This document shows, piece after piece, positions 55,701 through 58,700 of a stretch of 64,000 nt of DNA (the stretch's first letter is position 1; each line of letters begins with the position of its first letter). The stretch lies in contig OZ024753.1 in the NCBI GenBank assembly GCA_964016885.1, positions 5,270,001 to 5,334,000 of the forward strand, given 5' to 3'. The translations under genes were made by a program, and so were the position numbers. This stretch comes from Eledone cirrhosa. Taxonomy: Eukaryota. Under the pieces are notes generated by a model. It did no database searches and was not told the DNA's origin. It saw only the letters and a program-made list of their open reading frames with translations.

Positions 55701-58700
55701 AGCAAGGGTTGGACAGGTCAACAGAGCTCTCAAATAAGCCGGGAGCCTGCTTTTACATGTTTCCACAACCTACCAAGTGCTCGGATGGGCCAGGAACCAA
55801 CACCTCACTTACATATATTGGCACGCTCTAACAAGATCCATTTAATCATGACACCACAACCAGAGAGGTTATCATCTCCCATATATACATTTGCATACTC
55901 TAAGAGGTCCATTTTATCAATGACACCAACAAAGGGGAGGTGGTAATCTCTTTGAAACAGCTCATTCTAATAATATATTCTCACTCAAAAACATCTTGAA
56001 TTCGGAATTTCAGAATTATCAAATGTAATAGGTTTGTAAATAGCAGCCAACGGTTTGAATGTAAACTTACTTGAGATCTACACCCTCCTCTTGCCAAATG
56101 GAATCAACAATCTGGATAATCTGCAGTGTCAACATGTCTTGTCGGAGATCTACAAATGAAAATAGCAAATATCAACATCATACTCAATACTATTGACATT
56201 GTTGTTATATCAAACCAACAAAGGAGCATGTATATATGGTCACTCAATGAGTTAGGCAAAGCATCTGCTAAATCTCTTGCTACCATATATACATATATAT
56301 ACATATATATATATATATATATATATATATATATAATATATAAGAACAAAAGATGGTTAAAAGAGTTCCATGTATTTTATTATGCGCATTTCAAAAACAA
56401 ATATCATCATGCAATAATATTTGTGTTTTCATCAGATAAAACAGGACATCATATGAAGGTTAAAAAACACTTGTGGATAGTTCAGTTTTAATTCAACATA
56501 TGTTGATTTAAAACTGAACTATCCACAAGTGTTTTTTAACCTTCATATCATGTCCTCCTGTTTTATCTGATGAAAACACAAATATTATTGCATGATGATA
56601 TTTGTTTTTGAAATGCGCATAATAAAATACATGGAACTCTTTTAACCATCTTTTGTTCTTATATATTATGTATACTCCAGTCCTACAAACTGTAGAGTGC
56701 TTCTTATCCGATATCTGCATTGCTTTATTGTACTACAATAAAACTCACCTCCTACATATATATATATATATATATATATATATACATGCATATAGATATG
56801 CAAACATACATGTACACACATACATACACGCACATATATCGACATCAATCAAAAATATCCCAGACCTCATTCACTTAATGAGTTGGGTGGAGCTTGTCAA
56901 ATCGGACCGAGGATACTATGTTTCCATTGGTCTTTGCAATTGCTAATACTATCTATGAGTCGCAATGTGAAATAAAGTGTCTTGCTCAAGGATATAACAC
57001 AACACCCAGTCCGAGAATGGAACTCACAACCTCATGATTGTGAATCCAATTCTCTAACCATTCATGCGCATTCAGTAAACACATACATATATACACATAC
57101 ATATACACACATATATATGTATATATATTTATATATACACACACACACACACACGCACACACATATACACAACTGGTTTCTATAGTAACCAATTACCAAA
57201 ATCCAGTGACAATGCATTGGTCAACCATAGGCTATAGTCGAAGGCATATACATGTCTATAGTGTCATACAGTCACACTGGGATTCCACCCAGAATTCAAC
57301 CAGTTTCTCAATCAAACTTTTTAACAGGTCAGCCATGCATGCCCACCTATGTTAATTAATTCAATAATTTCTACAGGTAACAGTTGAAATTCCTTACCAT
57401 CACCATTCTTGTATATAATACAGAATTTCTCAGTACTTCGACAGGTTTCTTCATTTCGCCACACCAGCCACACTGGACGTTTTTTGGAATCTAAAAATTT
57501 GCATTCTTCAATTCTGTTTAATATAATATAAAAAAAGGCATTTGTTCTTTTAATATATATGTAAATATATATTATTTATATATATACTTTATACATATAT
57601 GATTATGATATATATACATATACATATATACATACATATATATATATATATACAAATATATATATATATATATATACATGTGAAGAAAATAAATTTGTTG
57701 AAAGCACAAGTGAAGCCATTTTTTCTTCCCCCCTGTCTTAATATACCTAACTGTACCAAGGATTACACACATTTTCCAATATATACATACATATATATAT
57801 ATATATATACATACATATATATATATATATATATATATATATTGTTATATTTGGGGAGGGTCATATTTGCGTAATATTGCCAGAATTAATAACAGAACAC
57901 ACTCACTGTTTGGTTGGTTTTTGCTTCTCGCTGTCTTTTATATATATATATCTGCGATATATCTATACGATATATCTATACATATATATATATACATATA
58001 TATATATATATACATATATATATATACATGATGGAGGCACAAGGCTTAGTGGTTAGAGCATTGGCCTTGCAATCGAAAGGTTGTGAGTTCAATTCTCAGA
58101 CCGGGTGATGTGTTGTTTCCTTGAGCAAGACACTTTATTTCACATTGCTCCAGTTTACTCAGCTGTAGAAATGAGATGATAGGGGCTGGGGTCCATATCA
58201 TTCCACTGTAAAGTGGTCGTGGAGGTGCCACGGGAAAAAAAGCACCCAGCACTCACTGTAAATGAGGTTGGTGTTAGGAAGGGCATCCAGCTGTAGAAAT
58301 CGAGCCACAATCAGTTCCCGCCCCACCCTTGCAAGCAGGGAAAAGTGGACATAAAATGATGATGATGATGATGATGATGATGATGACATACATATTTGAC
58401 TCCTTCCTCCCGTTTGACCTGTGCGAAATTCTTTCTTTACTCGCATTTCGACCAGGTTTGATGGTCTTTATTCTCTCTCGTCCACGATTTCACAGAACTT
58501 ATGTTCATCGATTTCAGGGACTTGACTCCTTCTTCCTCACTTTTCGTTGCATTACCATCTTTGTTTGTTTACTGCCTCGCTCGTTCCCCCGATTTACGTT
58601 TCCCAACTTTCTTTAGCCGTTGCTTGCACCAACCAGAGGTATATGGTCTTTAAAGCGATGAAATACCAATGAAGGTTGGAAGATCACTGATGAAGGACTA

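Follow-up and report, generated by a model that had tools for sequence, protein, structure and literature searches.

Analysis of a 64,000-nt window of Eledone cirrhosa DNA (positions 5,270,001 to 5,334,000 of contig OZ024753.1) indicated that a palindrome residing in a PI3K intron is, on the evidence of its sequence, a short head-to-head insertion of a Penelope-like element (PLE) of the Hydra clade. The palindrome is not rare: this genome contains thousands of nearly identical insertions, and the locus itself is an ordinary stub. The full account, which we consider probable, is that of a PLE inserted by priming at two sites, with neutral masking of its ribozyme in the PI3K intron. Only the signature pointing to two primings is of interest to specialists. 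Since the family is young, very abundant and stereotyped, and provides large counts, it is useful for the open question of how the inverted pseudo-LTRs (pLTRs) and tails of PLEs are formed.

The insertion, its hammerheads and the host intron

The two arms pair without a spacer about the sequence CATATG (56497-56502) and are 99% identical over 119 nt. Over 56333..56669, the extent given in the initial annotation, the differences amount to one 3-bp indel and two substitutions, so that the inverted repeat described there (spacer-less, with a 3-bp indel and about 2 mismatches) was borne out by the comparison of the arms. The palindrome is real, but the insertion is bigger: since the + arm runs on to 56757, it comprises 430 bp between two TA runs (56328-56757), with an 83-nt tail added on one side only (Table 1). 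BLAST alignment with the pLTR of the full-length family copy L048 gave 96.9% identity over 262 nt for the + arm and 92.7% over 179 nt for the - arm, and the insertion fits exactly the +53/+136 end geometry of the family described below.

Table 1. Features of the palindromic insertion and of its host gene within the window; element positions are numbered from the ribozyme cut.
Feature	Position	Strand	Basis or remark
Whole insertion, two head-to-head pLTR copies of a PLE assigned to the Hydra clade	56328..56757	.	BLAST and end mapping
Short arm, element about -125 to +53	56328..56502	-	PI3K-transcript sense
Long arm, element -126 to +136	56497..56757	+	PI3K-transcript antisense
One-sided 83-nt tail, element +54 to +136	56675..56757	+	Outside the coordinates of the initial annotation
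ATAT overlap joining both 5' ends	56498..56501	.	Commonest junction type, 16/39
Left target flank, (TA)n-rich	56287..56327	.	Sequence
Right target flank, (TA)n	56758..56783	.	Sequence
Type I hammerhead motif	56559..56629	+	Descriptor scan; predicted cut after 56621
Parts of the + hammerhead: stem I; CUGAUGA; stem II; GAAA; palindromic stem III	CUGAUGA 56567-56573; stem II 56574-56609; GAAA 56610-56613	+	
Identical type I hammerhead motif	56373..56443	-	PI3K pre-mRNA sense; predicted cut between 56381 and 56380
PI3K catalytic-subunit exon (DLRQD)	56071..56149	-	Matches p110 delta/alpha, E 3e-6
Host intron holding the insertion, 1,248 nt, GT-AG, phase 1	56150..57397	-	Upstream exon end and sequence

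Among the contigs of four sequencing runs none spans the locus, and the unique contig from run X1 ends in the left TA run, which leaves some ground for suspecting a fold-back artefact of the assembly. Such an artefact is very unlikely, in our estimation close to negligible, because the arms differ (by the indel and the two substitutions) and end at two family-specific sites, exactly +53 and +136, as in 62 of the 70 divergent pairs sampled (a non-random sample, in which one locus is counted twice and about 50 loci were chosen as short palindromes). Furthermore, joints to the same centre position, originating from other copies, are present in the X1 and X4 contigs. The run contigs of two other organisms cover exon or family sequence, and none of them joins flank to element.

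A descriptor scan of both strands of the whole window detected three type I hammerheads, with cores at 56567 (+) and 56435 (-), both within the palindrome, and at 50294, the last belonging to another family. The two palindrome hammerheads are identical and consist of an 8-bp stem I, CUGAUGA, a 36-nt stem II and GAAA-UGCGCA-UA; CUGANGA, GAAA, UH and stems I, II and III are thus all present. This confirmed the claim of a full hammerhead in each arm, and hence of one on either strand, and placed the - strand cut at the position already predicted. A search of Rfam at the gathering threshold gave 0 matches within the window. The pair 10.1-11.1 is A-U instead of the usual G10.1-C11.1, forming the triplet AUA. 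The ribozyme would be weak alone because stem III, with 2 bp as a monomer and 8 bp as a dimer, needs the dimer; the monomer ribozyme fold is predicted at -7.1 kcal/mol versus -11.3 kcal/mol for an alternative fold, while self-dimerization of the stem III octamer is predicted at -10.5 kcal/mol. On these models its activity would be weak and dependent on dimerization.

The CUGAUGA core, which was absent from the search pattern, occupies fixed positions in 99 of 100 arms, and stem II variants common to both arms still pair, via one-sided changes; the GAAA side was set by the search pattern and is hence uninformative on conservation. The conservation of core and stem II argues in favour of the predicted function of the ribozyme for the transposon. 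The third hammerhead (50282-50356, +) is a solo copy with G10.1-C11.1, a palindromic AU stem III and a predicted cut after 50342; it lies antisense within the last PI3K intron, and 23 exact copies of its 21-mer occur genome-wide.

The insertion is hosted by a class I PI3K-like gene of the - strand, whose upstream exon end (57398) and DLRQD exon (56149-56071) together delimit the intron concerned. A 2,795-nt contig (sequencing run X4, same organism label, kind unrecorded) matches only 56071-56150, in the manner of a spliced mRNA. The distance between the palindrome and the acceptor of the DLRQD exon, initially put at about 185 nt, was measured as about 180 nt. A second inverted pair (56962-57060 and 58050-58148; 99 nt, 86%, 989 nt apart) flanks the upstream PI3K exon and probably represents two copies of another repeat.

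The parent family

Exact-pattern searches of the species' own 3.0-Gb genome returned 12,587 + 12,599 (25,186) matches of an 18-mer of the ribozyme and 0 of a control, and two such motifs stand back to back, with a gap of 200-235 nt, at 2,680 places genome-wide. Among the first 100 ribozyme sites listed (contig C1), 64 lie within head-to-head pairs; when neighbours at most 6 kb apart are considered, 32 pairs among these sites are divergent, 3 convergent and 4 on the same strand. The spacing of the window locus recurs in 12 of the 32 divergent pairs, 5 others being shorter and 15 longer. Only 7 of 25 unpaired copies had a short inverted partner in the fetched flanks, and inversion is therefore common, not universal.

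The longer copies L031, L046, L048 and L050 contain frames of 738-821 aa, and L048 has the structure of a partial tandem (pLTR-ORF-pLTR). The pLTRs are direct in L046 and L048, and inverted in L031, L033 and others. The 799-codon frame of L048 contains the reverse transcriptase (RT) motifs FDIASYY, MGASDS and YRDD, followed by a GIY-YIG-like endonuclease (EN) signature (LIY...YFG, R, E, N). Its product also carries DKT, a CxCx5C linker, and CxxC plus CxH near the end, and its GIY-YIG part is devoid of internal cysteines (no CCHH); the RWK-type motif reads RWI in L048 and RWK in 6 of 9 aligned homologues. Of 37 homologues found, several carry the label PF26215 and one carries PF00078. Since Pfam scans of three element ORFs and four homologues called no RT or GIY-YIG family, the RT and EN assignment is based on motifs and on the alignment of homologues; a PDB sequence search with the element ORF gave 0 matches.

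The family unites the features of EN+ PLEs (a single ORF with RT and GIY-YIG, tandem or inverted pLTRs with a type I hammerhead, and a one-sided tail) with DKT, CxCx5C, the absence of CCHH, CxxC/CxH, an RWK-type motif and insertion into (TA)n. These motifs, together with (TA)n targeting and canonical hammerheads, define the Hydra clade (Craig et al. 2021, PMC8557442). We looked for a failure of the arms to map onto the pLTR of parents encoding RT and EN; instead, they map onto the pLTR of parents with RT and GIY-YIG, and thus the Penelope origin with an inverted pseudo-LTR, suggested by the initial annotation, was upheld. The arms almost certainly derive from a PLE. A non-LTR retrozyme was also considered and ruled out, as the copies are head-to-head and tied to an autonomous ORF, and are not head-to-tail tandem non-coding units.

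Several additional observations concern the family and its relatives. Contigs of runs X5 and X6, from two other organisms, contain near-identical family sequence (in X5 with the same +53 end into TA repeats), which indicates that the family is common to related species. Copy L031 (4830-5257), and also L032, L033, L036 and L039, contain an imperfect inverted repeat of ~400 nt (77-86%), located in the 3' UTR immediately before the pLTR; absent from the L048 listing, it would make a long hairpin in the element RNA. Within the window, a more distant Penelope-like ORF fragment (41165-41452, -) shows 37% identity to the L048 protein over 98 aa, and a 222-codon frame (51515-52183, -) presumably resembles the C-terminal portion of a LINE-type reverse transcriptase. 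The L048 ORF has an Asn-rich insert at about aa 590-655, between RT and the zinc-finger linker, which is lacking from the aligned homologues; inserts of a similar kind are known in Adineta PLEs (Arkhipova et al. 2013, PMC3846280).

Ends, junctions and the origin of the two arms

The 3' ends fall at +53 or at +135 to +138 in nearly all copies, and in the non-random sample mentioned above 62 of 70 divergent pairs have one arm ending at +53 and the other at +136. TA repeats adjoin 77 of 94 3' ends; the position of the +53 end within a TA-like stretch of the element may help its joining to a (TA)n target. The 5' ends also pile up: 33 of 98 mapped sites (from the first 100 listed) begin at -139 to -120, with 46 longer and 19 shorter. 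Genome-wide, 4,416 copies begin at the A of -125 without the templated C, a few of those listed being point variants of longer copies. We take this site to resemble the initiator consensus. The base preceding -125 is G in 33, A in 20 and T in 47 cases (hand count, first 100 listed); the G is a weak hint of a cap-templated nucleotide, weak because microhomology with the partner arm accounts for several of these G residues.

The commonest 5' junction is a 4-nt ATAT overlap (16 of 39), the same as in the window. Palindromes centred near the ribozyme cut number only 102, versus 2,680 spanning it, and most templates would therefore have been uncut there. A stall of RT below the 400-nt hairpin of the 3' UTR, as the origin of the fold point, is not favoured, since this hairpin occurs in some copies only and the pile-up at -125 is general.

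The median number of changes over about 165 nt is 1 between the arms of a pair, compared with 10 between different loci (51 pairs), and of 122 within-pair differences only 18 are at common polymorphic sites. These figures imply that the arms come from one RNA or from sibling RNAs, or that they were homogenised later. Arms from unrelated RNAs of the family pool were rejected on the basis of the 18/122 figure. Copying of one strand from the other, or subsequent gene conversion, would account for near-identical arms more easily than two RNAs.

One cDNA, or an antisense RNA, might also fold on its own 3' end and be copied back into the second arm, and this self-priming, in its antisense RNA variant, was put forward for Adineta PLEs (PMC3846280). 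The private variants that the arms have in common and the spacer-less centres on self-complementary ATAT (16/39 junctions) agree with such a fold-back, which we nevertheless judge unlikely when the asymmetric pairs are taken into account. Across 62 clean junctions, the +53 arm extends further upstream by at least 10 nt in 19 and the +136 arm in 4, the two being level in 39; with a threshold of at least 30 nt (hand count of the same junctions) the +53 arm is the longer at 10 loci and the +136 arm at 2. The upstream excess of the +53 arm at these 10 loci ranges from 30 nt to several kb, and its partner is in turn the longer one downstream (+136). As neither arm contains the other, a single fold-back is excluded there, and the arm sequences point to two RNA-templated primings as needed at least in the asymmetric pairs. 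For symmetric cases, such as the window locus, fold-back could still hold.

In the two-site priming that we prefer, the nuclease would nick both strands of the TA run, as suggested by the fixed ends and by the published biochemistry of PAc, and each nick would prime one cDNA, from +53 and from +136, respectively, on RNA not cut by the ribozyme. The element RNA would begin at about -125, probably at a capped start in the pLTR promoter, and with priming in the first pLTR the cDNAs would reach the 5' end of the RNA after about 178 and 261 nt. The expected products, of about 178 and 261 nt, equal the arm lengths at the window locus. The self-complementary ATAT 3' ends of the cDNAs would then anneal, leaving a spacer-less palindrome with a one-sided tail.

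There is, in our view, about an even chance that the 430-bp palindromes are an in vivo record of inverted-pLTR formation, in which a dimeric RT-endonuclease makes one cDNA per nicked strand (from +53 and +136) on the same or sibling RNAs, the two meeting at the capped 5' end via ATAT. If true, this record would tie the two start sites observed with PAc in vitro to the head-to-head structure and would replace the self-priming model. A search of the accessible literature returned no paper linking two RT start sites to the inverted pLTR structure, and a word search of the PAc paper found no connection made there to inverted pLTRs (PMC11167929).

Predicted masking in the PI3K transcript and comparison with known systems

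With the host gene on the - strand, the PI3K transcript contains the antisense arm first and the ribozyme arm second, as the initial annotation had stated. In the pre-mRNA the sense ribozyme would zip onto the earlier antisense arm, and no cut is predicted: for a nascent - strand RNA ending 20 nt beyond the cut, the predicted fold has -223.5 kcal/mol and engages the full ribozyme in pairing with the earlier arm. The proposed sequestration of the ribozyme in an intron duplex is thus predicted by this fold. The intron would then be spliced out, and the insertion would likely be near neutral. The idea that masking makes the insertion tolerable was not supported, as the divergent pair is the default product of the family (64 of the first 100 listed sites, C1). 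Any head-to-head pair yields an antisense-first RNA on either strand, and masking therefore needs no special explanation; within the PI3K intron, self-masking is probably an incidental result of insertion geometry and not a purpose-built switch.

It could still be supposed that the ribozyme is active, that the hairpin lets palindromic intron copies survive, and that ADAR editing or unwinding frees cleavage of the PI3K pre-mRNA. The masking is thermodynamically expected from the predicted fold, CUGAUGA is present in 99/100 arms and the shared stem II variants keep pairing, all of which would suit a selected switch of this kind; however, the head-to-head geometry is the family default across the genome, and in a young family such conservation is to be expected, the selection behind it acting on the transposon. 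The depletion of retrozymes from Xenopus introns, reported in a preprint (bioRxiv 10.64898/2026.07.22.740005), is a further point in its favour and by analogy may leave some room for selection. On the other hand, comparable metazoan PLE hammerheads show no activity as monomers and little as dimers (PMC4209133), the PAc ribozyme needs its protein (PMC11167929), and the ribozyme described here has A-U at 10.1-11.1 (triplet AUA). We consider such a selected switch decidedly improbable.

The editing-controlled unmasking suggested initially also has against it the apparent dimer dependence of the ribozyme, and editing would presumably strike the adenosine-rich catalytic core too. No A-to-G differences were found between the two arms of the palindrome, and no editing scar was seen in this copy. 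In the alignment of family arms, changes of A>G affect 9/49 A columns and T>C 22/66 T columns, with no excess that would suggest ADAR scars, and G-U pairing accounts equally well for the A-to-G variants of stem II. If the switch were true, thousands of introns could hold editing-sensitive cut sites; nothing in the analysis suggests so. Once genes are annotated, the family offers a natural test, in which solo and palindromic copies can be compared for selection against unpaired sense intronic hammerheads.

Like the Hydra-clade PLEs with a C-terminal EN (PMC8557442), the E. cirrhosa family has a single ORF with RT and then GIY-YIG, DKT, CxCx5C, no CCHH, CxxC/CxH near the end, a pLTR containing a canonical hammerhead, and (TA)n as its target. 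Its placement in the clade is by motifs, and it differs from the clade members in having RWI for RWK and an N-rich insert before the linker, in a unit of about 3.7 kb with a long 3' UTR (reported: <3 kb), and in at least 25,000 ribozyme-bearing ends.

Inverted 5'-truncated pLTRs with a junction palindrome and a one-sided tail are known for PLEs (PMC3846280; PMC8557442), and the insertions described by Arkhipova et al. share with ours the head-to-head arms, the junction overlap and the tail on one arm only. The E. cirrhosa tail is nearly obligatory (62/70 pairs) and, at 83 nt, over twice the usually reported 30-40 nt. Self-priming is favoured in that study (PMC3846280), whereas the asymmetric E. 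cirrhosa pairs contradict it. In Schistosoma, opposite-strand pairs of PLE hammerheads lie 100-700 bp apart (Cervera and de la Pena 2014, PMC4209133); the E. cirrhosa pair similarly consists of two opposite-strand type I motifs, about 240 bp apart, with a long stem II and a short palindromic stem III, but it differs in a longer stem II, of about 16 bp including one C-U mismatch, whose first pair is A-U, not G10.1-C11.1.

The PAc Poseidon element cuts and extends both target strands in vitro, is predicted to act as a dimer, and begins reverse transcription at two internal sites bounding the tail; its ribozyme cleavage is dispensable, and uncut RNA is used (Frangieh et al. 2024, PMC11167929). 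PAc belongs to a different clade and its start sites lie inside the ORF, whereas both E. cirrhosa ends precede the ATG (+218). The AT-rich target is common to the two systems, and the two-priming model proposed for E. cirrhosa agrees with the behaviour of PAc in vitro (PMC11167929).
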